A stretch of DNA of 64,000 nucleotides from positions 633,943-697,942 of the forward strand of contig CALKWN010000065.1 in assembly GCA_938004185.1 (NCBI GenBank), in the 5' to 3' direction. The DNA is from an uncultured candidate division WWE3 bacterium (GTDB lineage: Bacteria > Patescibacteriota > WWE3 > UBA101185 > UBA10185). The notes beneath the pieces were generated by a model. That model worked only from the letters and a program-made list of their open reading frames with translations. It did not search any database and had not been told where the DNA came from. Position numbers and translations under genes: made by a program. Every line of letters starts with the position of its first letter. Positions within the stretch are counted from its first letter, which is position 1. Shown piece by piece: positions 8,481-30,100 of this stretch.

Positions 8481-8484
8481 ACTA

Positions 8485-11633: not shown

Positions 11634-11672
11634 ACACTATAGGTTGACAATTCAATGGGCCACTTATATAAT
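11634..11672 (+). promoter_or_regulatory. sigma70-type promoter with conserved upstream ACACTATAGG element
   Basis: ACACTATAGG (11634-11643), then TTGACA (11644-11649), a 17-nt spacer, then TATAAT (11667-11672). About 28 bp upstream of RBS aaaggagag and a GTG start at 11700. Confidence 0.6.
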
Positions 11673-11699
11673 GCCGAAAATAAATAAAAGGAGAGAAAA

Positions 11700-12254
11700 G
11701 TGAACAAAAAATATGTTTTTACGGGGGCTGTTGCTCTGGTAACGATAATTTACTTAGCACTCGTTATTCATTACAAAAAGTACGAAAATGAGTGGTTCGG
11801 AATAAACATATTGCTAATATCGGGTTTGTTTGCCGGTATTACAATATTCATTTTCACCAAACTGCGCTGGTTTCAGCACGGTGGCCCCACATCTTACAAA
11901 ATGCTGGCAATACCGGTGGCCGGGCTGATCCTGTCGGTCTTTCTGGGACTGCATTACACGGAACAACCCGCAATTGTTGTAAGACAAAGTGATTACCAAT
12001 ACAGCTATGCGTTGTCGAGAACCGGCTATATGTTTAGCAACCTAAACATCGGGAGTGTGTCTGATTCTGACAGCAGTGTCGATATAGATTTCGACGATGC
12101 GGAAGGGGAAGCTGTCGCTTACCTGTTTCTAATCATCTTGGTCGTGGTACTGGTGGTCGGAAGTGCTTTCATACCTCACTTTTGGGTTGCCTCTTGTGCC
12201 ATACTGCTTGCGGTAATGGGAATAATGACATATAGAGAATACCTATTGGAGTAA
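11700..12254 (+). CDS. Membrane protein, unknown function
   Basis: 184 aa with 5-6 TM helices. RBS present. No recognisable motif. Confidence 0.4.
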   Translation: MNKKYVFTGAVALVTIIYLALVIHYKKYENEWFGINILLISGLFAGITIFIFTKLRWFQHGGPTSYKMLAIPVAGLILSVFLGLHYTEQPAIVVRQSDYQYSYALSRTGYMFSNLNIGSVSDSDSSVDIDFDDAEGEAVAYLFLIILVVVLVVGSAFIPHFWVASCAILLAVMGIMTYREYLLE

Positions 12255-12314
12255 TCTAGAGCCTCCTGCATACTTATCTTGATTCCGGTTAATAGCAACG
12301 GATAGAGATTTTAT

Positions 12315-12806
12315 GTGGGAGGCTTTCTTCGTTTTTATATCAAAATGTATAATTACCACGTGAAAAAATTTTATCTTAAAACAACACTGTTCTGGGGCGT
12401 CCTGCTCATAATTGCTATCCTAAACGCAGTTATAAGAGAAGCGACCTACAAGCCCTTTTTAGAACCTTATATCGGAATGTGGGCACATCAAATAAGCTCC
12501 TTTACAGCAATAGCCGCATTCTTCGTAGCGATATACGTGTTCGTTAAAAAACTGGAGCCTGTTCCTTCAGAAAGAAACTTGATTATTGCCAGTTTTATCT
12601 GGGTCGTAATGACCATAATTTTTGAAACCTCAATGAACATATTCATCCGAAAACTGACGCTTGAGCAAACACTCCAAACCTACTACTTTTGGCGGGGAGA
12701 AACTTGGATTTTGGTTCTTCTTTCACTTATTTTGTCACCCCTAATAGCATTGAAAGTGATAAACAAATCTCAGCTAATCGGTCATCACCCATCCAACCGT
12801 CAATGA
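12315..12806 (+). CDS. Membrane protein, unknown function
   Basis: 163 aa, 4 TM helices. Confidence 0.35.
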   Translation: MGGFLRFYIKMYNYHVKKFYLKTTLFWGVLLIIAILNAVIREATYKPFLEPYIGMWAHQISSFTAIAAFFVAIYVFVKKLEPVPSERNLIIASFIWVVMTIIFETSMNIFIRKLTLEQTLQTYYFWRGETWILVLLSLILSPLIALKVINKSQLIGHHPSNRQ

Positions 12807-12824
12807 CATGTTAAAATACAAAAA

Positions 12825-13718
12825 GTGAAAAAGATCAAAGCATTCTTCTACATAGCATACAAAAGCTCGGTGTCCTTTAAATATTATAAGGAAATACTTA
12901 AAACCCCTTTCGAATTCTCGATTAAATATTACGCGGTGCTGGTAATTATAGCAGCATTAATTACTTCTGCGGGAACATTTTTTATTGAGGGGCCAAAAAT
13001 AAAGGCTGTAGTAGACGACACACTTCAACAAATTGAAAATACATATCCCGAAGAGCTGGTTCTGACGGTAAAAGACGGGGGATGGGAAGTAAATCAACCC
13101 CTGCCATTAGTTATACCAATCCCTGAAACATACAAACAACGCGAAGAACAGCAAACAGAAAACGAAGAGGAAATGAAATTTGAAAACCTTATTGTTCTGG
13201 ATAAGGAAGGTGAGATCGGCGATCTCGAAGAGTATAAAACCATAATCTTAATTAATGAAAAAAATATTCTTGTAAAAGAAGCCGGGGAGCCGGGGGTATA
13301 CCCTATTAAAGATGTTCCCGATACTACGCTAGATCATTCAACATTAATAAATGCACTGGGAAATGTAAGAAAAATTGCGGGCTACTTACTTCCTTTGTTT
13401 ATAGTTTTGCCTATGTTTGCAGGTTTGATGGTTTACTACACGCTTTTCCGCGGGGCATACCTGTTGTTTGTCGGCCTTATATTATTTTTAGTGGGAAAGG
13501 CAACGAAAGTTAACACCTCTTACAGAAACTCTTTCAGGATTGCTCTGCATGCTATGACTCTTTCGGTTATTTTTGAGACCGTAGTTTGGATGCTAAACCT
13601 TCAACTTCCTATGGGCGAGTATTGGTTTATCGGAATTAATCTTATTGCTGGGTTTTTGGCTTTGTGGAGGATGGAAGAGGAGAAAAGTGTAACCGGTGTT
13701 TTGGAAGATAAAAAGTAG
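12825..13718 (+). CDS. Membrane protein, unknown function
   Basis: 297 aa. N-terminal TM, acidic soluble domain, then a C-terminal TM bundle. Confidence 0.4.
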   Translation: MKKIKAFFYIAYKSSVSFKYYKEILKTPFEFSIKYYAVLVIIAALITSAGTFFIEGPKIKAVVDDTLQQIENTYPEELVLTVKDGGWEVNQPLPLVIPIPETYKQREEQQTENEEEMKFENLIVLDKEGEIGDLEEYKTIILINEKNILVKEAGEPGVYPIKDVPDTTLDHSTLINALGNVRKIAGYLLPLFIVLPMFAGLMVYYTLFRGAYLLFVGLILFLVGKATKVNTSYRNSFRIALHAMTLSVIFETVVWMLNLQLPMGEYWFIGINLIAGFLALWRMEEEKSVTGVLEDKK

Positions 13719-13816
13719 GTAACAATACACGGACATTTTGGCGTTTTTCCTTGTGTCACCACAGCGTTAGAATGTTGAAGGACGGGGGTTGGCGTGTTAA
13801 TATTTCAATGTTTCAT

Positions 13817-13891
13817 TCCCCTGTAGCTCAAGGGTAGAGCGTCCGACTGTTAATCGGCAGGTTGGTGGTTCGAATCCACCCGGGGGAGCCA
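13817..13891 (+). tRNA. tRNA-Asn (anticodon GTT)
   Basis: TCCCCTG-TA-GCTC-AAGGGTA-GAGC-G-TCCGA-CTGTTAA-TCGGC-AGGTT-GGTGG-TTCGAAT-CCACC-CGGGGGA-G-CCA. Confidence 0.85.
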
Positions 13892-15391
13892 ATTAGACCT
13901 TATACGAACCAAATCTCGCGATACTAAAGCCTCAAACTCGGGTACGAACTCAAAACTAGTGATTATTCGCTCTTTTTCCAGGAATGCTTTTGATATGAAA
14001 AAGCGTAAAAACTGCTTTCTTTGTTGCTTATTCATTGCGTCATAAAGGTTTCCGATATGTCTCAAGCCGTTGATTATTTTCTCTATTTCGGAGTCTTTTA
14101 GGTTAGTAGATGGCTTATCCAAGTCTTTTATCTGTGCCTCCACCTGTTTTAGCTCTTCTTTTAGAGGTTTATATCTTTCCTTGAGTCTATCTATGTCCAC
14201 TAACTCGTCACCAGAAAACATCTTGTCCTCAATAACTCTCATTTTCTTGTCTAAAGCGTCTTTTCTGATTTTTAATACCTTAATCTGTGCGGGAACACCC
14301 GAGCCCTGCTCACTTTTAACCTCGTATAAAACACCTCTAAGCTCAGCAAGAGCCTCCTCAGTAAATACTGTTCCATTAAAGAAGTCTGCAATCTTATCAT
14401 CAGCTGTTTCAAGTGGAACATAAGTCCTAGAACAGCTATGGCATCGATAATAATTGCCTTTATCGTGGTATTCTCCAAACATTTGCCTGCCACACTTCAA
14501 GCAATGGGCATATCCTGACAGGAGGGTTACATATTTTCTATCTCTATGAGCACCTTTATTCTTTTTCTCAAACATAAGCAATGATTTGGCATACCAATCA
14601 AAGGATATGATTGGTTCATGTGCCGCTTTTTCATATACTACCCCATCATATAGTAGCCCTCCAGAGTAAAGTATATTTTTTAGGATATTTGTGACTGTGT
14701 TTTTGTAAACTTTTCCACCGGACTCATTCCTAAAACCCCTTTCATGTAACATTTCTGCTATCCTATGGACGGAATAATTACCTGACAACCACAGCTCATA
14801 AGCCATTACAATAAAATGCTTCCTCTCGGGGTCTGGGTATATCGGGGAATCTTTTTTATAGGAGTTTAAGTAACCAATTGGGCTTTTTCCTGGTTTTAAC
14901 CCTCTCTGAGCCAGAGAAAGCATAATCCTCTTTGTTTTCTTGCCTGTCCTTCTAGATTCAAGTTGGTTTACAGCCGCAACAATCACATCTAAAAACTCAC
15001 CTTCATCTGTATCACCATAATACCCATCTAGTGGAATCAGTTTTATTTTTCTTTTTTTAAGAAAAGCTTTAATCGCTAAATGGTCAGAGACATTTCTGGC
15101 TAATCTACTAGAATCCTGTACTAGTACAATGTCTACGGACTCAGCATGCTCATCACAATAATCAAGTAGTTCTTCCATATCAGGTCTGTCTAAATCTCTC
15201 GCACTCTTTCCGGAATCTTCAAATGTTTTGACAATAGAAATGTTATTTTGCTTTACAAAGTTTTGAAAAAGCTCGTCTTGTACATTCAAACTATGCCCAG
15301 TAAGAGCCTGCCGTGTAGTAGAAACTCTTTTATAGCATATAGCTTTTAATATTGTTCCTGTCTTTGGTTTCTGTTCTTCTAATCCGTACAT
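13850..15391 (-). mobile_element. Large serine recombinase (integrase) gene; its 3' end overlaps tRNA-Asn
   Basis: 513 aa. N-terminal resolvase catalytic domain 'ICYKRVSTTRQALTGHSL...IVLVQDSSRLARN', recombinase domain, Cys-rich zinc ribbon 'CLKCGRQ...CHSC', C-terminal coiled coil. The last ~14 codons are encoded by the complement of the tRNA. Confidence 0.85.
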
Positions 15392-15394
15392 TTT

Positions 15395-16297
15395 TTATTT
15401 TCCTATTCTTTCTTTAAGAATCCTACTTATAATACCGTTCAAGTAAGCGGGCTTATCATCTATTTTCTTACCACTAGAAATATCCTCTCGTAGCTCACCA
15501 ATCGCTTTTTCCAACACCCAAAACTGACCATCTCTTATAAGCGAGAGATACCTATCCATACACTTTTCACCTACTTCCAGAGCAATCTGATGCGATACAA
15601 ACTCTTCATGTCTGTTCGGTTTATAACTATCGGTTGAGTTTCTACACTTATACTCCGAGCTTTCTCTCCCCTTATTTCCCCCTTTATAAGACACCGATGT
15701 ATCGGTATTCTTAATCTCATGATAGTGTTCGGTATCATTATTATACCCTCTGTATTTCCTTTTGGCATCAACTAAATCATTGCTTTTTACGACACCGTTA
15801 TCGTGGTTTTTTGACCTCTGTTTTTCTTCATCAACCTCTACATTAACCTCTGATTTAGTAACGCTTTCTATAGGGGCTAGAGCCTCTTCTATAGGGTCAG
15901 TAAAATAATGTTCTATACCGATGTATTTGTCGTCAGGACTCTTAAAATCACCGAAGCGAACCTCGAAGGAACCTATCCTGCCGGAACGAGCTTCGTAGTA
16001 TATATACTTCTTTTTTTTCAGGGATAAGAGTAACTGATTAACATAATTGACTGATACTGAACTCTTTGAGCCTTCTGAACCAAAAACATCATCTCTAAGT
16101 GACTGAAGATGCACGGATGCTATGCCGTATGGGTTACATTGCAACCTTGCATGGCAATAGAGAAGATATTCCTTCCTAGATAAAATACCGTTTTTGTAAT
16201 CACTAGCTATCTTTCGTGGAAAGGGTATCCAATTAGAGGGCATTAAGTTTTTTGTATCCTTATTTTTTTCGTTCATATAGTGACTTATCAAATACAC
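15395..16297 (-). CDS. Hypothetical protein (island cargo; possible winged-helix/replication-associated)
   Basis: 300 aa. Directly upstream of and co-oriented with the recombinase. Low-complexity Lys/Asn-rich middle. No firm motif. Confidence 0.4.
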   Translation of the reverse strand: MYLISHYMNEKNKDTKNLMPSNWIPFPRKIASDYKNGILSRKEYLLYCHARLQCNPYGIASVHLQSLRDDVFGSEGSKSSVSVNYVNQLLLSLKKKKYIYYEARSGRIGSFEVRFGDFKSPDDKYIGIEHYFTDPIEEALAPIESVTKSEVNVEVDEEKQRSKNHDNGVVKSNDLVDAKRKYRGYNNDTEHYHEIKNTDTSVSYKGGNKGRESSEYKCRNSTDSYKPNRHEEFVSHQIALEVGEKCMDRYLSLIRDGQFWVLEKAIGELREDISSGKKIDDKPAYLNGIISRILKERIGK

Positions 16298-16413
16298 CTT
16301 CTTTTTGAAGACTAATCAAAAAGTTAGATAATTGTTTCAAATAAAAAGCCATAGCGTTTTCATCAACTATATGGGGCTTAATATTCAACTGTGTAATTAA
16401 ACTTTTTTTCATT

Positions 16414-16447
16414 TTGAAATAAAAAACCGCCTTCGGGGAAAGGCGGT
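16414..16447 (-). terminator. Rho-independent terminator (minus strand) downstream of the 16590-17552 gene
   Basis: 8-bp stem accgcctt/aaggcggt with loop cgggga, followed on the minus strand by TTTTTTATTT. Confidence 0.5.
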
Positions 16448-16589
16448 TAAATCCTTTGGTGTAAATATGAGAATAGAACTCATACCCCCGAACACCTTTG
16501 AAGTATTGGCTTCTACCGTTAACTTACAACAAAGGTATAGAAGGCAAAATATACATCAGCAGTAAACCCGGATGTCGTATAAATAAGGG

Positions 16590-17552
16590 CTATTTTCTCT
16601 TTTTGTTAGATGGGATGTCTTTTGCAAACCTTGTAAAACGCAACTTGGCTTGAGAAAAGTCCGAAGAGCCGGGACCTACAGAGGAGTACGGCTCGAATGC
16701 ATTTGGATATTTATTGATTATCTCAAATGCTTCTTTGTGGCTCATATTTTTATATTCTGTAAGATAGTAAGAATAGGCGTCTCGTAGAAGGTTTGAGCGT
16801 CTATCATATAAAGTTTTTCTATGCCCGGAAAGTGATTTTTGAAGCTTTTTTAATTCTTCTCGAAACTCTTTCGTCTTTAATATATCGATATTTGTATCGC
16901 CAAATATTTTAAGCTCGATGTATTGGTTTTTCTCACCCATAGAAATATAAATCCTGCGTTTCTTAAGTGCGTCTATTGCTTTATTAAACTTTAGTAAGTC
17001 GGGTGCCAAATCTTCGTCTAAATACTCAGACTCAATATTCTCAGCAGTGCCTAGAGGCATAACACTGTTTATATCGGGATAATCGTCGTATAAGGTGATG
17101 CTTTTAATCCGGCGTGTATACCTAGAATCTAAATGATAATCACGCAACAATGTCTCAAGAAACTCATCAGATAAATAGTTCTTCTCAAACTTTTGCAGTT
17201 TAATGTACTCCTCTTTAATACTCATAAAGTTTGCGGTTGCCGACTTTTCCAAACGGATAATATTTCCAAAAGTGTCAATATCATAAGAACTACCTTCCGG
17301 CATATCCTCATTAAAACCATCTTTATTGTTGAATTCTAAAACATGAGACAAAAGTTTCTTAGAATAGCCTTCCTTATAAAGTTCTTTTAAGAGACTACCT
17401 GCATTTATATTGTGAGCTTTTCTAATTCCATCCACATCTTTCCTAAAATCCTTGTTAATCGTAATTGCAAAAAGCAGCAATACATCCGTGTTACTTTGTA
17501 ACTTCCATTGTACAAATAATTCCCTATCTCTAGGGTTAGCCAATACTTCCAT
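16590..17552 (-). CDS. Hypothetical protein (island cargo)
   Basis: 320 aa with clean codon usage and no recognisable motif. Confidence 0.4.
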   Translation of the reverse strand: MEVLANPRDRELFVQWKLQSNTDVLLLFAITINKDFRKDVDGIRKAHNINAGSLLKELYKEGYSKKLLSHVLEFNNKDGFNEDMPEGSSYDIDTFGNIIRLEKSATANFMSIKEEYIKLQKFEKNYLSDEFLETLLRDYHLDSRYTRRIKSITLYDDYPDINSVMPLGTAENIESEYLDEDLAPDLLKFNKAIDALKKRRIYISMGEKNQYIELKIFGDTNIDILKTKEFREELKKLQKSLSGHRKTLYDRRSNLLRDAYSYYLTEYKNMSHKEAFEIINKYPNAFEPYSSVGPGSSDFSQAKLRFTRFAKDIPSNKKRK

Positions 17553-17761
17553 AACTACATTTTACAACTTATATAGTAACGGGTGAGGGTACGGGGAGCT
17601 CCTATTTGACCCTGCCCCTTAGTTTGTAATTAAGCTACACCCATACATTCCAGGAAGAAACTTGTCGATAATAGGATACATAGTACTAATTGGGCTTAAT
17701 CTATTCATATTTATACAAAATATATGGCTCAAAATAGGGTATTAAGTTATAATCCAATAGT

Positions 17762-17848
17762 AAAACCTAGCCGCGAACTAGTTAATGGTTAAAAACCTTG
17801 AGTCCAAGAAGGGGCTACCTTTCTGAAGGACTCAAGCTTCGCGGCTAG
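17762..17848. repeat. Long nested inverted repeat (12-bp outer plus 9-bp inner arms)
   Basis: cctagccgcgaa...cttgagtcc...ggactcaag...ttcgcggctagg. It lies ~25 bp upstream of the ORF starting at 17874. Confidence 0.5.
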
Positions 17849-17873
17849 GAACTAAAGAAGGTAGTCCCTTTTT

Positions 17874-18269
17874 ATGTTCTTATATAAAAACCAAAACGAA
17901 TCGTATAGAAAAGGTGCAAGGGTAGTAGAAGTAGTCTATTGGGTTGCTACATTAATTGTTTTCGCAAGTTTGTTTAACGAAGAATATAGTACTACTGATA
18001 AAGTAGTGGGTGGAATGGGAGCAGTGGTTCTATTTTTGACTATATACATGAGGCACTCGTTGAATAAACTTGAAACTATTTGTATAGAGTACGAAACTAG
18101 ATATAAACACATTGCAGAAAGTTTAAGAAAACTAGATATAAAAAATAAAATCTTAGCTTCAACTAGTAAGGAAGAAAAGGAAAAATATTCAATTGAGATA
18201 AAAACCATCTTGGAAACGATAGACGATAAAAATAATATCGGAGACTGGAGTTTTTATAAACATGCGTAA
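17874..18269 (+). CDS. Small membrane protein, unknown function
   Basis: 131 aa, 2 TM helices. Confidence 0.35.
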   Translation: MFLYKNQNESYRKGARVVEVVYWVATLIVFASLFNEEYSTTDKVVGGMGAVVLFLTIYMRHSLNKLETICIEYETRYKHIAESLRKLDIKNKILASTSKEEKEKYSIEIKTILETIDDKNNIGDWSFYKHA

Positions 18270-18705
18270 TAAACTACTTGTATTAATAGCGTGCGTGTTT
18301 TTGTTGTCAATTGGGGCATGTCTGTACATACAAAATGAATCCGAATCCCAAAAAGAGAATAACAATACTTTAACTAACACAATTGACGAAGAAGAATCAT
18401 ATGTAAATGCGATGAAGAATATTTTTCAAGAATATAGTAAAGGCAGTACAAAAAGTATAACTTCCACAGCTTTGGAGGGGTTGGGAAACGAAAACTCAGG
18501 CATACAATCACGACCGAAAGAATATTACACTAACACTTTTGAAGTGCTGAACATCAAAAATGGTTTGGCAGGTGGAAAAGAGATGAACATAGTATTTGAA
18601 AAGCATCCCAAAGAAATATTTTGGGTTTGGATTTATAAACTTGCAGACGGAACTTACCAAATAAAAGGTTTTCAATTAAATACCCTAACTGACAATAATA
18701 AATAG
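18262..18705 (+). CDS. Putative lipoprotein/secreted protein
   Basis: 147 aa. Signal peptide with a lipobox-like 'LSIGAC'. Confidence 0.4.
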   Translation: MRNKLLVLIACVFLLSIGACLYIQNESESQKENNNTLTNTIDEEESYVNAMKNIFQEYSKGSTKSITSTALEGLGNENSGIQSRPKEYYTNTFEVLNIKNGLAGGKEMNIVFEKHPKEIFWVWIYKLADGTYQIKGFQLNTLTDNNK

Positions 18706-19485
18706 TTGTTTTCACGCAAAGTATTAAATCAATGCTATCATTTTTATATGACAGTCCTTTATGAAGAAGTGCAACTACTAAGCTTTATTTCAAACGAAAA
18801 ACTGTTTCATGCTGTAGAAAAAATAATTACGAAAGCAAAAAAGTCTAAGCGTGAAGACAAGGACATTTATAAAAATGCTATTGACCCGTTTTCTGCACTT
18901 TTTGATGCTTCTTTAGCTGGGATTTCATTGAAAGACTGGTTAGAAGTAGAAAGAACAAGACAAGTTCAAAAATCTTTACAGAACACCATCGGGGAGTTTC
19001 ATGAAGAAATAATTGGCTCAATGCCTGGTTGGGAAAGACTGTTAGTGGGACATATCATTGATGTTGTTAATCCTGAGAAAAAGATTATTGCGGAACTAAA
19101 AAACAAATGGAATACCACTAAAGGTTCCGACAAAGTAGTTTTATACAATAGCTTAAGCATGGAATTAAAATCCGAACAATACAGTGGTTATACTGGGTAC
19201 TATGTAGAAGTAATCCCTGAGAAAGGTAAAACTTACGACAAACCTTTCATGCCTTCTGACCATACTAAACACATACGAAAACCTGAGAATCAAAGAATAC
19301 GAATTATAGATGGAAAAAGCTTCTACGCCTTAGCTTCTGGAGACCCGCTCGCACTACAAAAACTATATAAGATATTGCCCAGAGTAATTGCAGAAATAGA
19401 AAATAGTCCAAGCATTGCAGATTACAGCTCAGAAGAACTGTTTCATATACTGTTTGGTAAGGCATATTCTCCAGACTACAGGTAA
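18706..19485 (+). CDS. Putative Type II restriction endonuclease (PD-(D/E)XK-like) of an R-M pair
   Basis: Immediately upstream of and co-oriented with the C5-MTase. Candidate catalytic block 'GHIIDVVNPEKKIIAELKNK' fits a D...E.K arrangement. TTG start at 18706, or ATG at 18748. Confidence 0.45.
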   Translation: MFSRKVLNQCYHFYMTVLYEEVQLLSFISNEKLFHAVEKIITKAKKSKREDKDIYKNAIDPFSALFDASLAGISLKDWLEVERTRQVQKSLQNTIGEFHEEIIGSMPGWERLLVGHIIDVVNPEKKIIAELKNKWNTTKGSDKVVLYNSLSMELKSEQYSGYTGYYVEVIPEKGKTYDKPFMPSDHTKHIRKPENQRIRIIDGKSFYALASGDPLALQKLYKILPRVIAEIENSPSIADYSSEELFHILFGKAYSPDYR

Positions 19486-19495
19486 CCCTTGCATA

Positions 19496-20791
19496 ATGCA
19501 TTGGTTACTGATAACATATTTAAATATGCCTAATGACCTCTTTACTGTTACAGAAACAGCAGAAAAAATCGGTGTTTCAGCAGATACAATAAGACGCTGG
19601 GAAAAAATGGGTCTGATTAAATCAACACGCTCTGAGCAGAACTACAGACTTTTCAGTTTGTCCGAAGTTGAGAGAGTAAAACAGAAACAAGAAGGCACTC
19701 ACAGTCCAATTGGATTTAAAATCCTAAAGAACAATAAAAAGCACCCCTTTACAACAATCGAACTTTTCACAGGAGCCGGTGGAACTGCATTAGGTTTAGA
19801 AAATGCAGGATTCACAAATACTCTAATGGTCGAGATTGATAAGAACGCAGTCCAAACACTTAGAGTCAACAGACCGAAGTGGAATGTTATTCAAGATGAC
19901 ATAAAAAATGTATCGTTTATTGGAAAAGAAGTAGATGTGGTGGAGGGTGGTTTCCCCTGTCAATCTTTCAGCTTTGCTGGGAAAAAAATGGGATTTGAAG
20001 ACACACGAGGTACCTTGTTTTTTGAGTTTGCAAGATGTGTTAAAGAAACACGCCCGAAAGTAGCGGTTGGAGAGAATGTTAGAGGATTACTAAAACACGA
20101 TGACGGAAAAACTTTAAAAGTTATGGTCGATGTACTATCTGAACTCGGATACAAAGTGGCGTATAAAATATTAAGGGCACAATACCTGGATGTACCACAG
20201 AAAAGGGAAAGATTGATTATAATCGGTGTAAGAAATGACCTTGATATACCTATCCTGTTTCCTAAAGAAAAGGACTATTTTATTTCCATACAAGAAGCTT
20301 TAAAGGATGTTCCGGCATCGGAGGGTCAAAAATATCCTGAAAAGAAACGAAAGGTATTAGAACTAGTGCCTCCTGGGGGATACTGGAGAGACCTGCCTCT
20401 GGATATACAAAAAGACTACATGGGAGCCAGTTTTTATATGGGTGGGGGTAAAACAGGAATGGCTAGAAGACTGTCCTGGAATGAACCAAGTTTAACATTA
20501 ACCTGTGCCCCTGCTCAAAAACAAACCGAAAGGTGTCACCCAGAGGAAACAAGACCACTTTCCTATCGCGAATATGCCAGAATACAGACTTTTCCTGATG
20601 AATGGGATTTTGCTGGCTCATTAGCTTCAAAATACAAACAAATAGGAAACGCTGTTCCCGTAAATCTCGGTTATCACATAGGTAAAGCACTAATAGCAAT
20701 GCTTGAAAAAGACCCGAACCGAGAAGACTTTGTTGAGGTTAAGGAACCAGCTACAAGTAAAAACTTAAACATGCCGCTTTTCCCTAATTAA
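19496..20791 (+). CDS. DNA (cytosine-5)-methyltransferase with N-terminal MerR-type HTH
   Basis: Motif I 'FTGAGGTALGLENAGF', motif IV 'GGFPCQSFSFAGK', motif VI 'ENVRGLL'. N-terminal 'LFTVTETAEKIGVSADTIRRWEKMGLI' is a MerR-like HTH. Start at 19496 or 19526. Confidence 0.85.
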   Translation: MHWLLITYLNMPNDLFTVTETAEKIGVSADTIRRWEKMGLIKSTRSEQNYRLFSLSEVERVKQKQEGTHSPIGFKILKNNKKHPFTTIELFTGAGGTALGLENAGFTNTLMVEIDKNAVQTLRVNRPKWNVIQDDIKNVSFIGKEVDVVEGGFPCQSFSFAGKKMGFEDTRGTLFFEFARCVKETRPKVAVGENVRGLLKHDDGKTLKVMVDVLSELGYKVAYKILRAQYLDVPQKRERLIIIGVRNDLDIPILFPKEKDYFISIQEALKDVPASEGQKYPEKKRKVLELVPPGGYWRDLPLDIQKDYMGASFYMGGGKTGMARRLSWNEPSLTLTCAPAQKQTERCHPEETRPLSYREYARIQTFPDEWDFAGSLASKYKQIGNAVPVNLGYHIGKALIAMLEKDPNREDFVEVKEPATSKNLNMPLFPN

Positions 20792-20820
20792 AGTATGTAT
20801 AATATTAGTAGGTATAGAAA

Positions 20821-21432: not shown

Positions 21433-21436
21433 GTTG

Positions 21437-21892
21437 ATGGGTACAAGAGGTTTTACTGTGAAAATCCCCAAACAGATAGCAATAACCGTATCTCTCGAAC
21501 AAGGTACCGTGTATCTCTTTTCTGAAGAAAGTTTCGATACAACTACACCTCATTTCTTCATTATCTTAAACAAAAACCCTGTCGAAGACCCCTTTTTAAT
21601 AATGACCTGTGCTACTTCTCAAGTTGAAAAAAGGTATGAGTGGGTCAAGAAAAATGGCTTGGATTTAGAAACTATCGTTCCTATAGATGAAAGTAGCTAT
21701 AAGTTTCTGAACAGAGAAACTGTTGTCGATTGCAACCAATTACTTCAAAGGACAAAGGAAGTCTTAATGGACAAGTACGACAGTGGAAACCTAAAACTCA
21801 AAGGTAAAGTAACTCAAAAAGACCTTAATCGGATTATTAATGGGGTAAGAAAAAGTAAACTTGTAAGCAAGTCCCACAAAAACCTACTTTAA
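21437..21892 (+). CDS. Unknown protein translationally coupled to the Panacea-domain gene (candidate toxin partner)
   Basis: ATG lies 4 nt after the upstream stop. 151 aa with no recognisable domain. Confidence 0.35.
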   Translation: MGTRGFTVKIPKQIAITVSLEQGTVYLFSEESFDTTTPHFFIILNKNPVEDPFLIMTCATSQVEKRYEWVKKNGLDLETIVPIDESSYKFLNRETVVDCNQLLQRTKEVLMDKYDSGNLKLKGKVTQKDLNRIINGVRKSKLVSKSHKNLL

Positions 21893-22054
21893 GAAAAAAC
21901 TCTTTAAAGTAAAACGGGCAATAAACTTTACACATAAGCGACTACAGAGAGGGAAAAGGTCATTGACACTCTCCATCATTGAGTGCTATAAGTTTGGGCA
22001 CAAGTGAAAAAAAACAAACACTCACTGGCACAGTGAGTCCAGCCCAACACACAG

Positions 22055-22086
22055 ACCGCCAGTTTTAAATGAGGCGGTATTTTTGT
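22055..22086 (+). terminator. Candidate rho-independent terminator
   Basis: accgcc(22055-22060)...ggcggt(22073-22078) followed by atttttg. The loop is rather large (12 nt). Confidence 0.35.
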
Positions 22087-22214
22087 AACTGCAGGCACAT
22101 GAACAACTGAAGATTGAAAGGATACGCTGGTAGGTAGCATCTCCTCAAGACGACAGAACTTTACAGCACCAGGTTCGTTCGTACTTTTACGAACCTTTGA
22201 GAGGAGGTGTTTTT

Positions 22215-22343
22215 ATGTTTAATCAAAAGGGTAAAAAAAGTAATCCCGCCACCGAAATAGTAGAGGGATTCTTTTTTGACGAAGCGATAGGTCTATTTTT
22301 ACCCAATAGACTGTTGAAACTACTTGTGAGACCGACAGCATAA
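22215..22343 (+). CDS. Small ORF (42 aa) with strong RBS, unknown function
   Basis: gaggagg sits 8 nt upstream of the ATG. Product: MFNQKGKKSNPATEIVEGFFFDEAIGLFLPNRLLKLLVRPTA. Preceded by a 7-bp hairpin gttcgta/tacgaac. Confidence 0.3.
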   Translation: MFNQKGKKSNPATEIVEGFFFDEAIGLFLPNRLLKLLVRPTA

Positions 22344-22629
22344 CATCTGGTAAGTAACACAGCAAGCCAGCGTATCCTTACAGTCTTTAATAAATAATAT
22401 CACTAAATAAAACCGGACAAAACAAAAACATATGCTTTCTACCTAACTAGACTAAGACAGGTATCAAACTTCGTATAAAAGCAACTATAGGGAGCCAATA
22501 CTTTATATATTTACAAAGTACCCCCTAAACTTGCTACAAGACCCCATACATGCTATTACTACCTCAAATACAAGAAAAAACCATCCGGATTCGGTTCTTT
22601 CTTATAATTCCAAGCGAAGGAGGTACAAA

Positions 22630-22779: not shown

Positions 22780-22882
22780 GCATTACGGGGAGAGGACTAC
22801 GATAATAAACCGGATAAATTATTCGTAGTTCTCTCTTTTGCACTTTAACTTTCTAATACCCAATACTAATTTGGAGGTCACC

Positions 22883-24217: not shown

Positions 24218-24270
24218 CTAAAAAGAATTGTACTGCTCTACATACCCCACGGGGCAGTACAATTCTCACA

Positions 24271-25008
24271 CTAACTATCCTTAGAACTCTCTTTAAACCA
24301 TTTAATTCCATTGCTCAAATATTCATTGAAGGTTTCTCTATTTATAAAAAGGTCTTTTAATAAATCTTTTGCTTTTTGTAAGTGTGGATAATTATACAGA
24401 TAAGAATCATAGCCTCTGAGGTGTCTGGGCCATAATTCGTTTAATGTGGTATCTAGTCCCAAGATTGCGTTCGAGGTTATTTCATTCAGTCCCCAATAAT
24501 AAAAGTTTTCGTCTTTTTCTGCCTCTTCTCCAAACCTTTCATACAAAATAGACCATATGTGCGATATTAATATTTCATGTGCTGTAATACGAGCATGTTC
24601 CCCAGTAGGAACAAAAAGACCTCTTAAAACCTTATCTTCTCCAAAACTACTAACGCCCGTATTAAAAGGACTTAAGACAACAAAGAACTTATCATGGAAC
24701 CAATTGTGCGAAGTTATCTCTGGAACCCTTTTAGAAAAAATGGTGTGTATTCCTGACCAGGTATGTGCATAACCTTTAAGTGCTTGTTTAAATTCTTGCT
24801 CCAGTGGTTGATATCTTTTTGAAACATAATTTTCGGCATACTGTTGAACCATGGAGTAATCGGCTTCACCGGCAAGAGTATTAGCCACTTCCACTTCTAT
24901 ACCCATGCTTTTAGCGCGCGTTTCTCTTTCATTTGGGGCGCAATAAAACAACATAGACCAAGTTATTCCGGCATCATATTTCGAATCTTTAATAAACTCT
25001 ACCTGCAT
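24271..25008 (-). CDS. Hypothetical protein convergent with the rSAM gene
   Basis: 245 aa. 'AHEILISH' is HEx4H, not a canonical HExxH. No confident family. Confidence 0.35.
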   Translation of the reverse strand: MQVEFIKDSKYDAGITWSMLFYCAPNERETRAKSMGIEVEVANTLAGEADYSMVQQYAENYVSKRYQPLEQEFKQALKGYAHTWSGIHTIFSKRVPEITSHNWFHDKFFVVLSPFNTGVSSFGEDKVLRGLFVPTGEHARITAHEILISHIWSILYERFGEEAEKDENFYYWGLNEITSNAILGLDTTLNELWPRHLRGYDSYLYNYPHLQKAKDLLKDLFINRETFNEYLSNGIKWFKESSKDS

Positions 25009-25155
25009 AATGTTATTTTATCACTCAAACCCAGTAATAAACTGGATTGCAAATATTAACGAAATGGTACTAGATATCGTTTTTTTTTTATAAAGAAGTA
25101 TCACCGAACAAAAAGGTTATATTTCTAATAAAGTTCTGAATGGGGAGCCACACAT

Positions 25156-25194
25156 ACACTATAGGTTGACAAAATGGGGTGGGAGGGGTAGAAT
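25156..25194 (+). promoter_or_regulatory. sigma70-type promoter with conserved upstream ACACTATAGG element
   Basis: ACACTATAGG (25156-25165), then TTGACA (25166-25171), a 17-nt spacer, then TAGAAT (25189-25194). RBS aaggag and an ATG at 25258 follow. Confidence 0.6.
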
Positions 25195-25257
25195 TATCCC
25201 TTAGTCAAGCAACCGCGTAAATTTCTATGCGGATTAATCCAAAATAAGGAGATTGAA

Positions 25258-25824
25258 ATGACCGTTTTGTTTGGTTCCGTTAAGTTCTATAGCGAAAAGG
25301 GGTTTGGCTTTATCAGCCTTGATAAACCCCAAGATTTATTTTTCCATATCAAAAACTACTCAAAACCCGTTGCAACTGAGCGTGGTGTAGTTTTTGAACG
25401 CGTATATAAAAACTCTGTTCGTTACCCTCAGCCGGGGGATTCCGTAGCATTTGAAATGACTATGGGGAACAGGGGTTTTGTCGCAAACCCTTGGTGTTAT
25501 ACCGAGGATTACCATAAAGCTTTGGAAATCTTCGAAAAATGGCCGCAACCACAACGGTACAGAGTCGTTACGGTCCACGATCAGATCCACATAAGTGGGT
25601 TTGTTGGCGAACCTCACGTAACGTGGGGCGGTGAAAAAGGAGGTACGTTTGAGGAACTCTGTAGAACGTATCCCCGGGATCGTTATGACAAATTACAGTA
25701 TTTTGGTCATGACGACTTCAATGCAACACACTACATCCAGCAATTAAAGGATGGAAAGTGGGTTAACATCGAAGACCCGAGACCGTATGTGGAAGATCGG
25801 TATAGATCCAGACGTCGCTGGTAA
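25258..25824 (+). CDS. Protein with N-terminal cold-shock-like (CSD/OB) domain
   Basis: 'GSVKFYSEKGFGFIS' resembles the CspA RNP1-like region. The C-terminal ~120 aa are of unknown function. Confidence 0.5.
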   Translation: MTVLFGSVKFYSEKGFGFISLDKPQDLFFHIKNYSKPVATERGVVFERVYKNSVRYPQPGDSVAFEMTMGNRGFVANPWCYTEDYHKALEIFEKWPQPQRYRVVTVHDQIHISGFVGEPHVTWGGEKGGTFEELCRTYPRDRYDKLQYFGHDDFNATHYIQQLKDGKWVNIEDPRPYVEDRYRSRRRW

Positions 25825-25843
25825 ATGGTAAAGGGGGGAAAGC

Positions 25844-26020
25844 ATGAAAGCGGTAATAATTATGGCAATAGCCATAGTGTTAGACGCCGTGCTGGTTGTT
25901 GTGTACACAACTGCGTACATAAACAGCCCTGAGAACGGGAATAATCTTTTGCTAGCAATTTTCTGGTTTGCGCTTTATATAGGTAACGTAGTGCGCATAT
26001 ACCACTACAAAAACAGATAA
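25844..26020 (+). CDS. Small (58 aa) two-TM membrane peptide
   Basis: RBS aaagggggga. Product: MKAVIIMAIAIVLDAVLVVVYTTAYINSPENGNNLLLAIFWFALYIGNVVRIYHYKNR. Below the ORF-track size cutoff. Confidence 0.3.
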   Translation: MKAVIIMAIAIVLDAVLVVVYTTAYINSPENGNNLLLAIFWFALYIGNVVRIYHYKNR

Positions 26021-26186
26021 ACCTAACAACCCGCCGCCGTAAGGAAGTGTGCAAACACAACCCCAAGGCGGCTTTTTCTTTTCTAAAACTCATACATTAA
26101 CAACCGCTCACAAAAACTTAAAATCCTGTTGTCGCTGTTAATAAAAAATAAAGCCCATCATCGCAGTCATAGTCTATAATTTTCAC

Positions 26187-26735
26187 ATGAACAAAATATT
26201 CATAATAGGTCTGGCCGGCTCCGGTAAAACCTTCCTGGCAAACAAACTAAAAAACAGACTTAACTACCCTACCTATACGACCGATTGGATACTATATGAA
26301 AAGGACACCGACCTTAAAAGAATAAAACTTTCCGAAAAAGAGTACCTGAAGAATATCGACAAAATCCTAGCTCAAAATAAATGGATTGTAGAAGGCGTGC
26401 ATTACTTTGAAAAAATTGCGCTCGATGCTGATTTAATACTTTTTCTCGACACACCTATTTACAAAAATATTTTGGGAATAATCAGGAGGTATTTAACCGA
26501 TAAGGAATATAGAAAAACTTATAAACTTCGTGATTCTCTAGCCCTGATACATAAAACTGTCGCCGGCTACTATTCAACTCCTAAAGAAGAGCTTTTATAC
26601 TATCCGAAATACAAAGGTAGAAAAAAGTACCAAAAAGTTTTGGAAAAACACAGGGGTAAGGTTAAGGTTGTGAGAAATATACAAACCTATCTGAAAAGTC
26701 CGGATCCCCCCCCCATCCTAGTAAATAATACTTGA
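26187..26735 (+). CDS. P-loop NTPase (adenylate-kinase/FlaR topology-modulation-like)
   Basis: Walker A 'IIGLAGSGKTFLANKL' at the N-terminus. About 180 aa. Confidence 0.5.
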   Translation: MNKIFIIGLAGSGKTFLANKLKNRLNYPTYTTDWILYEKDTDLKRIKLSEKEYLKNIDKILAQNKWIVEGVHYFEKIALDADLILFLDTPIYKNILGIIRRYLTDKEYRKTYKLRDSLALIHKTVAGYYSTPKEELLYYPKYKGRKKYQKVLEKHRGKVKVVRNIQTYLKSPDPPPILVNNT

Positions 26736-26769
26736 CAAAATGTAAAGTAGTTATTACATTGTAATAGAT

Positions 26770-27192
26770 ATGGATAGAAAAAAATATAAGCAAATGAGGG
26801 TTTTTATAGCCTTTTTCGTGGGATTGATTGTTTCTATAGCTTCCACAAGAGGGAGCTATCTTTTGGCGGTAGCCGGAGTAGTTACCGGAATGGTCTTCAT
26901 GGCTCTGGTTCGTTCTAAAGTAAAAATCCCGACAGACGAAAGAGAATTAGCTATTCAAGAAAAGGCGGCCAGAATGGCCTACGCAATATTTGCCCCGACT
27001 CTGGGTATAGCATCTTTCTTACTACTTCTCCCTTCAAAAGGGGGAATTTCTGTTTTCAGCAAAGGCGAGTGGCTATACATTGAATCTTTAGGAATGGTTT
27101 TTGCATACCTCGCACTTTTTTTAATTATCATCTACGCCATCTCGTATCATTTTTTTAACAAAAAGCTCGGGGGCGGTGGTAATGAAAAATAA
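26770..27192 (+). CDS. Membrane protein (DUF2178-like) paired with an XRE regulator
   Basis: 140 aa, 4 TM helices. Overlaps the downstream HTH gene by 17 nt. Confidence 0.4.
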   Translation: MDRKKYKQMRVFIAFFVGLIVSIASTRGSYLLAVAGVVTGMVFMALVRSKVKIPTDERELAIQEKAARMAYAIFAPTLGIASFLLLLPSKGGISVFSKGEWLYIESLGMVFAYLALFLIIIYAISYHFFNKKLGGGGNEK

Positions 27193-27388
27193 ACTAAAGG
27201 TCTACCGGGCAATGCATAATCTAACTCAGGAGCAACTTGCGGATAAAATTAATGTGAGCAGACAAACCGTCATTGCTATTGAAAATGATAAATACCTCCC
27301 AACCCTAGGCCTTGCATTTAAAATCGCAAATTTATTTAAAGTTAAAATTGAGGATATTTTTTCATATGAAGAAAATAATGAAAATTAG
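27176..27388 (+). CDS. XRE-family HTH transcriptional regulator (YozG-like)
   Basis: 'LTQEQLADKINVSRQTVIAIENDKYLPTLGLAFKIANLF' is a classic Cro/C1-type HTH. Confidence 0.8.
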   Translation: MVMKNKLKVYRAMHNLTQEQLADKINVSRQTVIAIENDKYLPTLGLAFKIANLFKVKIEDIFSYEENNEN

Positions 27389-27785
27389 AAACTCCCGGGA
27401 AAAGGTTTTTTACATAATCGCGATAGGCATAAGCATAACCTTTCTATTCTTATTTATAGGTTCTGTGTGGATCGGGTACGAAGCTAAAAATATTTGTCAG
27501 AACGCCAAGTGGCAATATAGCGGAGATTGTGTGGAAGCACTGATTACTCAACTAGACGACCAACATCAGGGCTACAGAACAAGAAATCATGCTATTTGGG
27601 CACTCGGTCAATTCGGAGATTCACGCGCTCTGCCGATTCTTGAAAAATACTACACAGGAGTTATTCCCGACAGAGAACCTTTAGATGAAACAATAAGCCA
27701 GTATGAGTTGGAAAAAGCTATTAAACTGGTTGAGGGTGGAACTAATATTACATCGTGGCTTTGGCGCAGTGAGTTGTCTGAATAA
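27366..27785 (+). CDS. Membrane-anchored HEAT/PBS-lyase repeat protein
   Basis: N-terminal TM helix. 'NHAIWALGQFGDSRALPILEKYY' is a HEAT_2-type repeat. Confidence 0.45.
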   Translation: MKKIMKIRNSREKVFYIIAIGISITFLFLFIGSVWIGYEAKNICQNAKWQYSGDCVEALITQLDDQHQGYRTRNHAIWALGQFGDSRALPILEKYYTGVIPDREPLDETISQYELEKAIKLVEGGTNITSWLWRSELSE

Positions 27786-27835
27786 TTTTCTGATACAATG
27801 AATTTAGTAAGGTCGCCGTTAGTCGCGAACCGTTT

Positions 27836-28303
27836 ATGAGCAAATTACTACTCGTAATTCTTGTTTTAGGTGCCAGCGCACTAATTTTCTATATTGTCGC
27901 GGGGAATTCCAGCATTTTACCTCCCGAAGCAGAAATTGATGAAAATATTGATTACGAAATGGTAAAGGAGGGTTTACAAGAACAGGGTAGAAGAACCGTT
28001 TATGGAAGCTGTAATGACATCCCCAATTCAAGCAATTGCATAGATTATGTAGGATCAATGTGGAAGGACAACAACTCTGCAGAGTTAAATTGCGGCGAAG
28101 ACAGAAATTTTTCTACCAACGCTTGCCCTTACTCACAACTCGGGGGTTGCCAGGCTAACGGCGGAACTGTAATGGAGATAATCGCCTGGGTTTACGAAGA
28201 GGGGCCCGGACAGTACACCGAGGAAGTAGTAGCTGACGCCGCAAAAGCTTGCAATAGTATTCCAAACGGAAAGTGGGTAACTCCGGAGAGTTTTTTGGAG
28301 TGA
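27836..28303 (+). CDS. Secreted Cys-containing protein, unknown function
   Basis: Signal peptide 'LLLVILVLGASALIFYIVAG' and 6 Cys. Confidence 0.35.
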   Translation: MSKLLLVILVLGASALIFYIVAGNSSILPPEAEIDENIDYEMVKEGLQEQGRRTVYGSCNDIPNSSNCIDYVGSMWKDNNSAELNCGEDRNFSTNACPYSQLGGCQANGGTVMEIIAWVYEEGPGQYTEEVVADAAKACNSIPNGKWVTPESFLE

Positions 28304-28447
28304 TAAACCCCTGTTTTTACTTCAAGTACCCCGACCTTTACAAAGTAACATGTGTTTGCTACAATAGCCATTGCTGCAATATCAAGTGTTGTAGTAAATA
28401 AATAAAAACCAAAAATAAAAACTGAATAGAAACGAAAGGAGATATAA

Positions 28448-29230
28448 ATGGAAGGCCAGAATTTGGTATCCAGACCTTGCGACTGGTGCAGTCGTGGTGG
28501 TGTTGTGGGGGATGGTAATGGGTGGTTCCGGGACAGTGACGTAGACTTCAGCAGTCGAGGTTACAGCGGAATTCCTGTATGCGGTGGTTGTGGAGGTCTT
28601 GGGGTGCAGTACGACACACCTGACTTCGCGCAAAGAACCAAACGCATAATGGAATTACGTTTCGAGTTTCATCCAACGGATGCCCTACCCGATCCACCTG
28701 AAATACTGCTATACCTAACGCTTAAAAAACTCATAAAAGAAGTGAGGGATCTTGTGGAAAAATATCCGACAGAGAACAAAAGCTGTTATGCACAAGTAAT
28801 TTCGGACGGCAGGCTTGATAAGGTTCTTGAGCTACTAAAAGTAGAAGTGGACGCCATGATAGATACTTTGGAAAATGACGAGCCTCCTCCCGAAGCTGTA
28901 GAAATGCTTCCTGCTTTGAAAGCCGTTTACAGCGGTGAGGTGGACAAGGGACTGGAATACATGTTGAAAATTTTGGAAAATAATCCGAACGATTCATTGT
29001 ATGTCCACGATTACGGTATTCTACTTTTACGGTTTAAGCGGGATGCGGAGGGCGCCTTAGCTCAATTTATCAAAGCAACAGAGCTAGAGCCGAAAAAAAC
29101 CGATCATTTCTTTGATGTTATTAGGCTTTTGAGCTCTCTAGGCAGAAACGCCGAAGCGGAAGAATACCTGGAAAAAGCTAAAACTGCCCCTGATTATAAA
29201 GATGTTGTGACCGAAATGATCGGAGAATAA
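28448..29230 (+). CDS. Protein with N-terminal Cys4 zinc-ribbon-like region and C-terminal TPR-like repeats
   Basis: 'CDWCSRGG...GIPVCGGCGG', then helical repeat region 'ALAQFIKATELEPKKTDHFFDVIRLLSSLGRNAEAEEYLEKA'. Confidence 0.4.
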   Translation: MEGQNLVSRPCDWCSRGGVVGDGNGWFRDSDVDFSSRGYSGIPVCGGCGGLGVQYDTPDFAQRTKRIMELRFEFHPTDALPDPPEILLYLTLKKLIKEVRDLVEKYPTENKSCYAQVISDGRLDKVLELLKVEVDAMIDTLENDEPPPEAVEMLPALKAVYSGEVDKGLEYMLKILENNPNDSLYVHDYGILLLRFKRDAEGALAQFIKATELEPKKTDHFFDVIRLLSSLGRNAEAEEYLEKAKTAPDYKDVVTEMIGE

Positions 29231-29406
29231 ATCGATCAGAATTAAGCAATTGCGGCTGCCTATTTACATACAAAGTAATAGCAGCCGCACTATTTTCGCC
29301 AAAAACCGTATCTTTAATACTAGTCGAAACTTTATCCTGTAGCTTTGCGCAGGAATACCTAACGTTGTATAATCACCAAAACTCAAACAATAGAAGGAGA
29401 TGAAAA

Positions 29407-29742
29407 ATGCAAGACTTAAAAAAGTACTGGTCAATTACTGTTATTGTGTTGGTAGCCGTAGCGGCTACAACGATCGCCGGATGGGTCAGTGTCGTAAAGC
29501 CCGAGCTGTATCTCAAAGAAAGTATCGGATCTGCTTTTTGGTATTTACCGGGTTGGATCCTTATTATCATGTGGGCTATAAATGGGACAAAAAAGCTTAA
29601 CCGACCTCTGGTTGCACTAAGTGCGGTGGTAGCGTATGCGCTTAGTATTCTGTTGCTTTTTGCTCCGGCTCTGCCTCCATCCTTTTACTGGTACTATCCG
29701 ATCGGCATTTGGTTTTTTGTTGTGTCAGTATTTTTTAGCTAG
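29407..29742 (+). CDS. Small membrane protein
   Basis: 111 aa, 4 TM helices. Confidence 0.35.
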   Translation: MQDLKKYWSITVIVLVAVAATTIAGWVSVVKPELYLKESIGSAFWYLPGWILIIMWAINGTKKLNRPLVALSAVVAYALSILLLFAPALPPSFYWYYPIGIWFFVVSVFFS

Positions 29743-30061
29743 CAGAACAAGAACCGTTTAATGCCCTATTTTATTGCCTGTTCCAACTAAAAATTTTGGG
29801 AAAGGACAGGTCCAGCAACGCCTTAAGATATTAACAAACTTAAGGCGTTTTTTCTTTTGTGCCGCTTTTAAGAAATTTTTTAGAAAACATACCTTCCCAC
29901 TATACGAGATCAACAAACCTGCTGTAATATATGTTTATGTCATTAATAGTAATAGAGATAAAAAAATTCATTCAGAAGTATCCTTTTGCAGTTGCTGTTA
30001 TAGCAATAGGAATTATTGTTTTGATAGCTTTTAACTAATCCCAAACCACCCCTTATCGGTC

Positions 30062-30100
30062 ACACTATAGGTTGACGGATGGGGGATTTTGTTGTAAAAT
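30062..30100 (+). promoter_or_regulatory. sigma70-type promoter with conserved upstream ACACTATAGG element
   Basis: ACACTATAGG (30062-30071), then TTGACG (30072-30077), a 17-nt spacer, then TAAAAT (30095-30100). RBS agaggagg and an ATG at 30143 follow. Confidence 0.6.

Follow-up and report, generated by a model that had tools for sequence, protein, structure and literature searches.

The 64,000-nucleotide stretch of DNA analysed here, to which we refer as the window, comes from an uncultured candidate division WWE3 bacterium (contig CALKWN010000065.1), and it is bacterial chromosome of about 40% G+C carrying a tmRNA, nine tRNAs, FtsH, a suf operon and dnaG-rpoD. The SufB encoded here shares 73% identity with that of another candidate division WWE3 metagenome-assembled genome (MAG), and the 649-kb metagenomic contig ERZ724101 NODE_1 and an NCBI contig of 842 kb also encode window proteins. 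The subject of this work is a 10-mer, ACACTATAGG, called here the box, which abuts the -35 hexamer of three intergenic sigma-70-type promoters of this window (sites 1, 2, and 3 in Table 1).

The three genes that follow these promoters are, as described earlier, a membrane protein, a protein with a cold-shock (CSD) domain, and a secreted-type protein, and the first of them opens a strain-variable run of small genes which ends in a DUF1189 gene (12825-13718). The 15-mer ACACTATAGGTTGAC, formed by the box together with TTGAC, is found three times in the window, always on the + strand, against an expectation of 0.10 from shuffled sequence, with none of the 100 shuffles yielding three copies; no further match was found in the window when up to two mismatches were allowed. 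All three sites show TTGACN, 17 nt, and TAnAAT, lie between genes, and face a gene with a ribosome-binding site. The first-pass annotation of this DNA had described three identical 10-mers next to a -35 hexamer, followed by exactly 17 nt and a good -10, and we confirm each of these points; its placement of the 10-mer at -45 to -36 is also borne out, taking the -10 as -12 to -7. In contrast, the start codon, which it had put 25–45 bp past the -10, lies at that distance at sites 1 and 3 (27 and 42 nt) but not at site 2 (63 nt). Transcription is predicted to start near 11679, 25201, and 30107 (sites 1, 2, and 3), and the centre of CTATAG would fall at -39.5 to -41.5, as it lies 4–6 nt 5' of the -35 hexamer.

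Table 1. Coordinates of the box promoters, their genes, and the associated tRNA-like features in the window.
Feature	Coordinates	Strand	Detail
Box, site 1, ACACTATAGG	11634-11643	+	CTATAG core 11637-11642; predicted -45 to -36
Core promoter, site 1	11644-11672	+	TTGACA 11644-11649, 17 nt, TATAAT 11667-11672
Site 1 gene	11700-12254	+	184-aa membrane protein, no Pfam family
Box, site 2, ACACTATAGG	25156-25165	+	
Core promoter, site 2	25166-25194	+	TTGACA 25166-25171, 17 nt, TAGAAT 25189-25194
Hairpin in the 5' untranslated region (5'UTR), site 2	25211-25250	+	AACCGCG...GCGG, then AATCCAAAATAAGGAGA
Site 2 gene	25258-25824	+	188-aa protein with cold-shock (CSD) domain, E 2.7e-8
Box, site 3, ACACTATAGG	30062-30071	+	
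Core promoter, site 3	30072-30100	+	TTGACG 30072-30077, 17 nt, TAAAAT 30095-30100
Site 3 gene	30143-30664	+	173-aa secreted-type protein, signal-peptide-like N-terminus, no Pfam or PHROG family
tRNA-Asn, ending in GGGGGAGCCA	13817-13891	+	Reference for the upstream block
Upstream block, site 2, ATAAAGTTCTGAATGGGGAGCCA	25128-25150	+	Resembles tRNA-Asn 3' end GGTTCGAATCCACCCGGGGGAGCCA
Box-like 8-mer fused to GGGAGCCA, ACTATAGGGAGCCAA	22484-22498	+	Right-hand edge of integrase island

Past the -10, site 1 has AAGGAGAG and a GTG at 11700, and sites 2 and 3 have the ribosome-binding sites AAGGAGA and GAGGAGG ahead of an ATG at 25258 and 30143, respectively; at site 3, GTCACACTATAGGTTGAC, with the -35 included, is a 16/18 palindrome. 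The spacers (11650-11666, 25172-25188, and 30078-30094) each have ATGGG(G) a few bases past the -35 and are otherwise unrelated, and this ATGGG(G) is not seen in most relatives. A search of 24900-30300 against Rfam gave no match at E <= 1. On the other side of site 1, the divergent suf promoter region (11560-11600) contains the palindrome ATAGATAGATATTAATCTATAT, which overlaps the suf -10/-35 and probably serves the neighbouring ArsR-type regulator (11235-11540) as operator.

The box is confined to small accessory genes, most of them ORFans. At most window genes, including the tRNAs, tmRNA, rpoD, ftsH, and the suf operon, the promoter is mostly a good -10 with no -35, and no box was found at any of these promoters. 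Likewise, no box promoter was found in the 10 kb past each window edge (20 kb of the same genome), where aminoacyl-tRNA synthetases, ribosomal protein L25, and cell-wall genes are encoded. Among the genes behind box promoters of the candidate phyla radiation (CPR, or Patescibacteria), a Pfam family could be assigned to two of 20, a CPBP-type protease and a zinc-ribbon protein, and not to the other 18, and one WWE3 MAG (L091) has at least six box promoters within 8 kb, all on one strand and each ahead of a small ORFan. We also observed that consensus -35 hexamers are rare in this genome and that TATAAT-like -10 hexamers are typical of it.

Conservation of the box across species

The 15-mer was searched in one genome per species, covering 185,579 species, and 93 loci matched, nine of them from WWE3 genomes, including the complete RAAC2_WWE3_1 chromosome, with others from Woykebacteria and unclassified Patescibacteria. 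Each of the 16 non-redundant CPR instances, which include the window's own three sites, is followed by TAnnnT at 16–18 nt and then by a ribosome-binding site; a correctly spaced -10 is present in 16/16 CPR instances vs. 13/79 in other phyla (Fisher p = 1e-10). The non-CPR matches in a Prevotellaceae RUG210 MAG and a Bryobacterales MAG belong to two unrelated repeat families (L006, L044, L046, and L086; L038, L058, and L062), which have conserved flanks and no promoter architecture. Among the CPR instances, found in species of 34–44% G+C, the spacer, the sixth base of the -35, and both flanks show no conservation, whereas the box, TTGAC, and TAnAAT are kept, and since spacers and flanks are unrelated, the shared 15-mer does not come from recent copying.

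A second, motif-independent test took promoters of the form TTGACN, 16–18 nt, TAnWWT, and sought CTRYAG 0–4 nt 5' of their -35. It was present at 7/16 other consensus-type promoters in the same CPR loci and at 8/20 promoter-like sites in the window and in loci fetched via protein homologues, giving 15/36 CPR-derived promoters vs. 0/34 non-CPR promoters (592 kb; p = 1e-5). The core is present in either orientation, as ACTATAGG or CCTATAGT; the forward box abuts the -35, the inverted box CCTATAG(T/C) lies 1–3 nt from it, and in two metagenomic loci (L180 and L207) two back-to-back divergent -35 hexamers have one box in common. Box presence is all-or-none, with almost no intermediates: sites that have a -35 and no box differ from it by at least two mismatches, with CCATAG in L003 as the one exception. 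Judging from these copies, the conserved unit is a 7–8-mer, (A)CTATAGG, with a palindromic CTATAG core, rather than the full 10-mer.

The CSD gene of site 2 has orthologues with 57%, 54%, and 48% identity. The first two of these are preceded by box promoters, reading CCTATAGT followed by TTGACT-17-TATAAT and CCTATAGT followed by TTGACA-17-TATAAT, which lie 240–265 nt upstream, behind long leaders, and are otherwise unrelated to the promoter and leader of the window; the nearest 180 nt upstream of the orthologues contain no box. These comparisons show that the box is under selection across species and tied to the -35. The first-pass annotation had proposed a motif search in relatives, and in WWE3 and other Patescibacteria the module is indeed found again with its promoter architecture unchanged, unlike in other phyla. 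Its alternative of a local duplication is not borne out, given that the module is found across species with unrelated spacers and flanks, and its suggestion of a lineage-specific promoter-proximal element or regulator site gains support from the cross-species module, from the promoters taken without regard to the motif, and from the CSD orthologues.

As for the leaders of the CSD orthologues themselves (L262 140-397, L263 3250-3484, and L267 9700-10000), they are about 240–265 nt long, and their last 180 nt have blocks in common, for instance GTTTCAAGGAAGG ... CTTCCTTGAGACC. Those of L262 and L263 had no Rfam match at E <= 0.1, and the leader of the window gene is short and different from those of the orthologues. 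The L263 contig, CPR-like and of 33% G+C, also carries an S-adenosylmethionine (SAM) riboswitch at 1438-1542 (RF00162, 54.8 bits).

It had also been remarked that the box resembles T7 and SP6 promoter cores, and a promoter of a single-subunit RNA polymerase of this type would be an altogether different explanation of CACTATAGG. The likeness itself is real, with 9–10 identical bases: CACTATAGG is identical to nine nucleotides of the T7 core, and site 1 also matches GACACTATAG of SP6. Its meaning, however, is very likely nil, and we consider the chance of such a promoter close to negligible. T7/SP6-type promoters have a consensus of about 23 bp, from -17 to +6, but our sites bear no likeness to the specificity region at -17 to -8, and their three upstream flanks differ from one another. 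Moreover, the box is also found inverted relative to its gene, and a sigma-70 -35/-10 pair at 17 nt accompanies it in every case. The proposed search for a T7-like polymerase gene found none, with no match to RNA_pol (PF00940) in the large open reading frames (ORFs) of the window or in the called genes of the 20-kb flanks. At E <= 0.001, three of these large ORFs (46951-50820, 52292-56257, and 61955-63808, of 1289, 1321, and 617 aa) are without a Pfam family.

Promoter cassettes, tRNA ends, and partial copies

Two strain contigs, L269 and L326, share 97% identity with window 6184-13850 and have an identical site 1 promoter, but in them an additional gene, of 198 aa, is located between the gene of the suf regulator and that of the 184-aa protein. 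This extra gene is flanked by two copies of ACACTATAGGTTGACA...TATAATGCC...GGAG, and the window matches the left flank of copy 1 plus the whole of the sequence that begins with the copy 2 box. In the same contigs, another extra gene has an inverted-box promoter of its own (CCCTATAGcatTTGACC). Given that the 198-aa gene was found in the same place in all 15 contigs, and in no other context, this is a presence/absence polymorphism rather than demonstrated mobility. Longer blocks are also common to promoters of unrelated genes: an 18-nt block upstream of the core is found both in the window and in L110, and a 25-nt stretch of the site 2 5'UTR is identical in L167/L076, ahead of an unrelated CPBP protease gene that has a box promoter. 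As a side effect, identical promoter cassettes of 30–65 bp would act as recombination substrates by which ORFan genes are added or removed between strains.

These observations could be taken one step further, to a functionless box whose 10-mer is kept only through the spread of one promoter cassette by duplication, recombination, or gene conversion, that is, a mobile promoter. The duplicated promoter and 5'UTR around the extra gene of L269/L326, and the blocks up- and downstream of the core that unrelated genes of different genomes have in common, are what such a process would leave. Nevertheless, we consider it very improbable: 16/16 CPR instances preserve the box, TTGAC, and TAnAAT in the midst of randomised spacers, flanks, and sixth -35 bases, the box is also found inverted and at other spacings, and it is retained in orthologous promoters that have otherwise diverged. 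With randomised spacers and inverted copies, pure hitch-hiking is unlikely.

The surroundings of several box promoters resemble the ends of tRNA genes. The ATAAAGTTCTGAATGGGGAGCCA block, which precedes site 2, is also found ahead of box promoters in L110 and L091/L145, and several WWE3 promoters have G(A/G)GGAGCCA 5–9 nt ahead of their box. In other loci, box promoters follow real tRNA genes, at 5 nt from a tRNA-Asn (L145), 8 nt from a tRNA-His (L198), and 53 nt from a tRNA-Lys (L079). In the window, an island at the tRNA-Asn (13850-22500) carries a large serine recombinase, an Eco47II-type restriction-modification system (an endonuclease together with a C5 methylase fused to MerR), and a protein with a SocA/Panacea antitoxin domain. 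All this suggests that many box promoters may adjoin att-type scars of tRNA-integrating elements.

The partial versions of the box reported earlier for this DNA did not fare as well as the three full sites. Those said to lie at 6098 and 6153 are copies of CTCACTATAG at 6102 and 6158. The 8-mer CACTATAG is found outside the three sites at 6104, 6160, 43274, and 62035 (the last inside an ORF); counting the 56-bp tandem once, this gives three independent copies against 1.07 expected, which is not significant, and the copies at 6102, 6158, 43274, and 62035 are without promoter context. At 22484, the junction position is correct but the status of a partial promoter probably is not: ACTATAGG is fused there to GAGCCA with no intact -35/-10 after it, and because of its fusion to GGGAGCCA, which resembles the tRNA-Asn 3' end, this copy reads as an island-junction scar; it is probably a scar or a decayed copy.

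Two side observations concern these tRNA genes. Next to tRNA-Ile, window 6066-6213 consists of a 56-bp unit present twice and a 35-nt duplicate (6179-6213) of part of the tRNA-Ile (6001-6033), and this repeat, which contains the CTCACTATAG copies, looks like an integration or duplication scar. In L326, a 558-bp insertion with a 91-aa ORF (L326 9093-9650, corresponding to window 13850/13851) interrupts the tRNA-Asn exactly within its anticodon loop, and ARAGORN calls no tRNA at this split gene; the 558-bp piece could represent either an insertion or an intron of the tRNA. Past this tRNA, on its downstream side, L326 has a different island (Peptidase_M78 and HTH_3).

From the tRNA context it could be argued that the box and the -35 form the operator of a regulator carried by tRNA-integrating mobile elements or islands, the promoters being of the element-edge or moron type instead of part of a host network. 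This would account for the box promoters directly after tRNA genes in L145, L198, and L079, for the many others with a G(A/G)GGAGCCA like the tRNA-Asn 3' end ahead of them (including site 2 and the 22484 junction), and for the one-strand series of at least six before the small ORFans of L091. It would likewise fit with the position of the window sites around the serine-recombinase island at tRNA-Asn, a gene which has different islands in different strains. We still find it distinctly unlikely, because the 15-mer is kept over genomes of 34–44% G+C while operators of element repressors usually diverge fast, because site 1 stays on the chromosomal side of tRNA-Asn, beside the suf operon, in every strain examined, and because the neighbouring genes include no phage hallmark genes and no consistently linked regulator gene.

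The box as a putative docking site, compared with known systems

The alternative closest to the interpretation that we favour below is that RNA polymerase itself reads the box, as a lineage equivalent of the proximal UP subsite to which the alpha subunit's C-terminal domain (alpha-CTD) or an attached module binds, and that these are simply very strong promoters. We regard this as unlikely, although it has several points in its favour. The box lies at -45 to -36, which is where the proximal UP subsite is placed (PMC12641261). Spacings of 1–3 nt and both orientations are tolerated, which fits a flexibly tethered domain, and a consensus -35 is always alongside. Finally, the CSD orthologues keep the box, and the cspA promoter of Escherichia coli has an UP element at this place.

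On the other hand, UP elements are A/T-rich tracts at -60 to -38, with the proximal consensus AAAAAARNR, and are strongest at stable RNA promoters. Neither form of the box, ACACTATAGG or CCTATAGT, is an A/T tract, the 40 nt ahead of it show no conserved tract of this kind, and the tRNA, tmRNA, rpoD, and ftsH promoters are boxless. The presence of the box is all-or-none instead of graded, and its absence from those promoters and from 20 kb of core genes argues against an intrinsic strength element, which would be expected to be most prominent precisely there. In other words, the likeness to the proximal UP subsite extends to location (-46 to -38), tolerance of small shifts, and strong promoters, including that of a cold-shock gene, while sequence, all-or-none presence, and absence from housekeeping promoters set the two apart. 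As regards the polymerase, RpoD (36940-38202) has no C-terminal extension past region 4, and the alpha subunit was not found by tblastn in 1.9 Mb of sequence with E. coli RpoA as query. A sigma factor whose elongated C-terminus would extend to the DNA upstream of the -35 was also considered and discarded, as RpoD ends 11 residues past region 4. Separately, L267, an 819-kb CPR-like genome of 52% G+C, encodes at 1308-1718 a free-standing 136-aa protein whose C-terminus matches the alpha C-terminal domain (PF03118), and no homologue of it was found in the window.

We favour, at evenly balanced confidence, the reading of the three sites as a distinct promoter class of the WWE3 group (Patescibacteria/CPR), with the box as putative docking site of a lineage-conserved DNA-binding protein. 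Such promoters would consist of a near-consensus sigma-70 core plus a 7–8-bp box located 1–3 nt from the -35 in either orientation, and the box would be bound by a sequence-specific protein of this lineage, likely a small dimer because the core is short and palindromic. Once bound, the protein would be placed immediately upstream of sigma region 4, at the location of class II activators or of the proximal alpha-CTD, and would switch or boost otherwise consensus promoters as one regulon. It is the all-or-none presence of the box, together with its absence at housekeeping promoters, that favours a dedicated trans-acting protein over an intrinsic strength element.

Several points weigh against this docking-site interpretation and should be kept in mind. 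No linked binder was found among the Xre-type (27182-27388) and ArsR-type (11235-11540) regulators and the MerR-methylase fusion of the window. A site of 8 bp is short for a typical bacterial regulator, and a 2-bp variation in spacing with indifference to orientation is not what a rigid contact to this part of sigma (region 4) would easily allow. Both hexamers, -35 and -10, are of consensus type, instead of the weak activator-dependent core expected of a class II promoter, and as such hexamers need no activator, the putative protein could equally be a repressor. The identity of the ACA prefix could be due to ascertainment, since the loci were fetched with the exact 15-mer. In addition, the metagenome and viral scans, which used CTATAGGTTGAC-N18-TANAAT as query, gave 42 matches in viral contigs, vs. 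36 and 14 for the control 7-mers CATATGG and CTTAAGG; with the viral count not above controls, these sets are mostly chance coincidences at ordinary promoters and add no support. The weak upstream preferences seen among the matches listed for the metagenome and viral sets were therefore disregarded as chance.

To our knowledge, almost nothing is known about the control of transcription in CPR bacteria, which are not growable alone and have very few recognisable regulators, and our literature search found no description of the box element or of any CPR/WWE3 promoter-proximal motif. Through the box, a regulon of small membrane or secreted ORFan proteins, a class suspected to mediate the epibiotic lifestyle, would become accessible to computation, and the box sequence would be a bait for the binding protein. 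Box promoters would also be ready strong native promoters for the emerging genetics of Patescibacteria, and the strain-variable cassettes and tRNA-associated islands bear on how tiny genomes acquire genes.

Among known boxes, that of NrdR, a 16-bp palindrome (acaCwAtATaTwGtgt) found in tandem upstream of nrd genes, was rejected as a candidate: the sites agree with its left half (ACACTATA), but all three differ from the whole 16-mer by more than three mismatches, and the genes are not nrd genes. Class II activator sites, such as those of CRP/FNR at -41.5 and of lambda cI at -42, are 14–22 bp long and usually accompany weak core promoters. Like them, the box is a discrete site with a palindromic core abutting the -35, centred at a predicted -39.5 to -41.5, and restricted to a subset of promoters; unlike them, it has a core of only 6–8 bp and consensus -35/-10 hexamers. 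The cluster A mycobacteriophages have the L5 gp71 operator and asymmetric "stoperators", which are also short asymmetric sites that include or abut a -35 and are repeated in many intergenic regions of accessory DNA, but stoperators are mostly not promoters and keep one orientation, whereas here every copy is part of a full promoter, both orientations occur, and conservation extends across host species.

The PeSL cassettes of T4-type phages, in which highly similar strong sigma-70-type promoters are repeated before ORFans in variable regions (PMC2839356, PMC4122927), are comparable in two respects. A repeated strong sigma-70-like promoter ahead of ORFans in variable regions is also what we find, and for a gene gained or lost among closely related strains between two copies of the cassette we have one case (the window vs. 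L269/L326). The differences are that ours is a bacterial (CPR) chromosome instead of a phage, and that no consistent counterpart was found of the stable stem-loop terminator that PeSL cassettes include, with folding z-scores of -0.03, -1.42, +0.40, and -1.50 and only local, non-shared hairpins, which are not significant. More speculatively, and in our opinion rather improbably, the WWE3-group CPR bacteria may own a dedicated "cassette promoter" system, with a lineage-specific factor that reads CTATAGG beside the -35 and a separate class of promoters for exchangeable ORFan surface-protein genes, and with cassettes, often located by att-like scars at tRNA ends, that double as recombination substrates. 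This factor could be attached to RNA polymerase, which we think possible because free-standing alpha-CTD-like proteins exist in related genomes (L267). If true, such a system would be the chromosomal counterpart of the phage PeSL, with a trans-acting reader of its own. Among promoter-proximal regulatory boxes, this element is set apart by its sharp phyletic range and by its association with ORFan cassettes.

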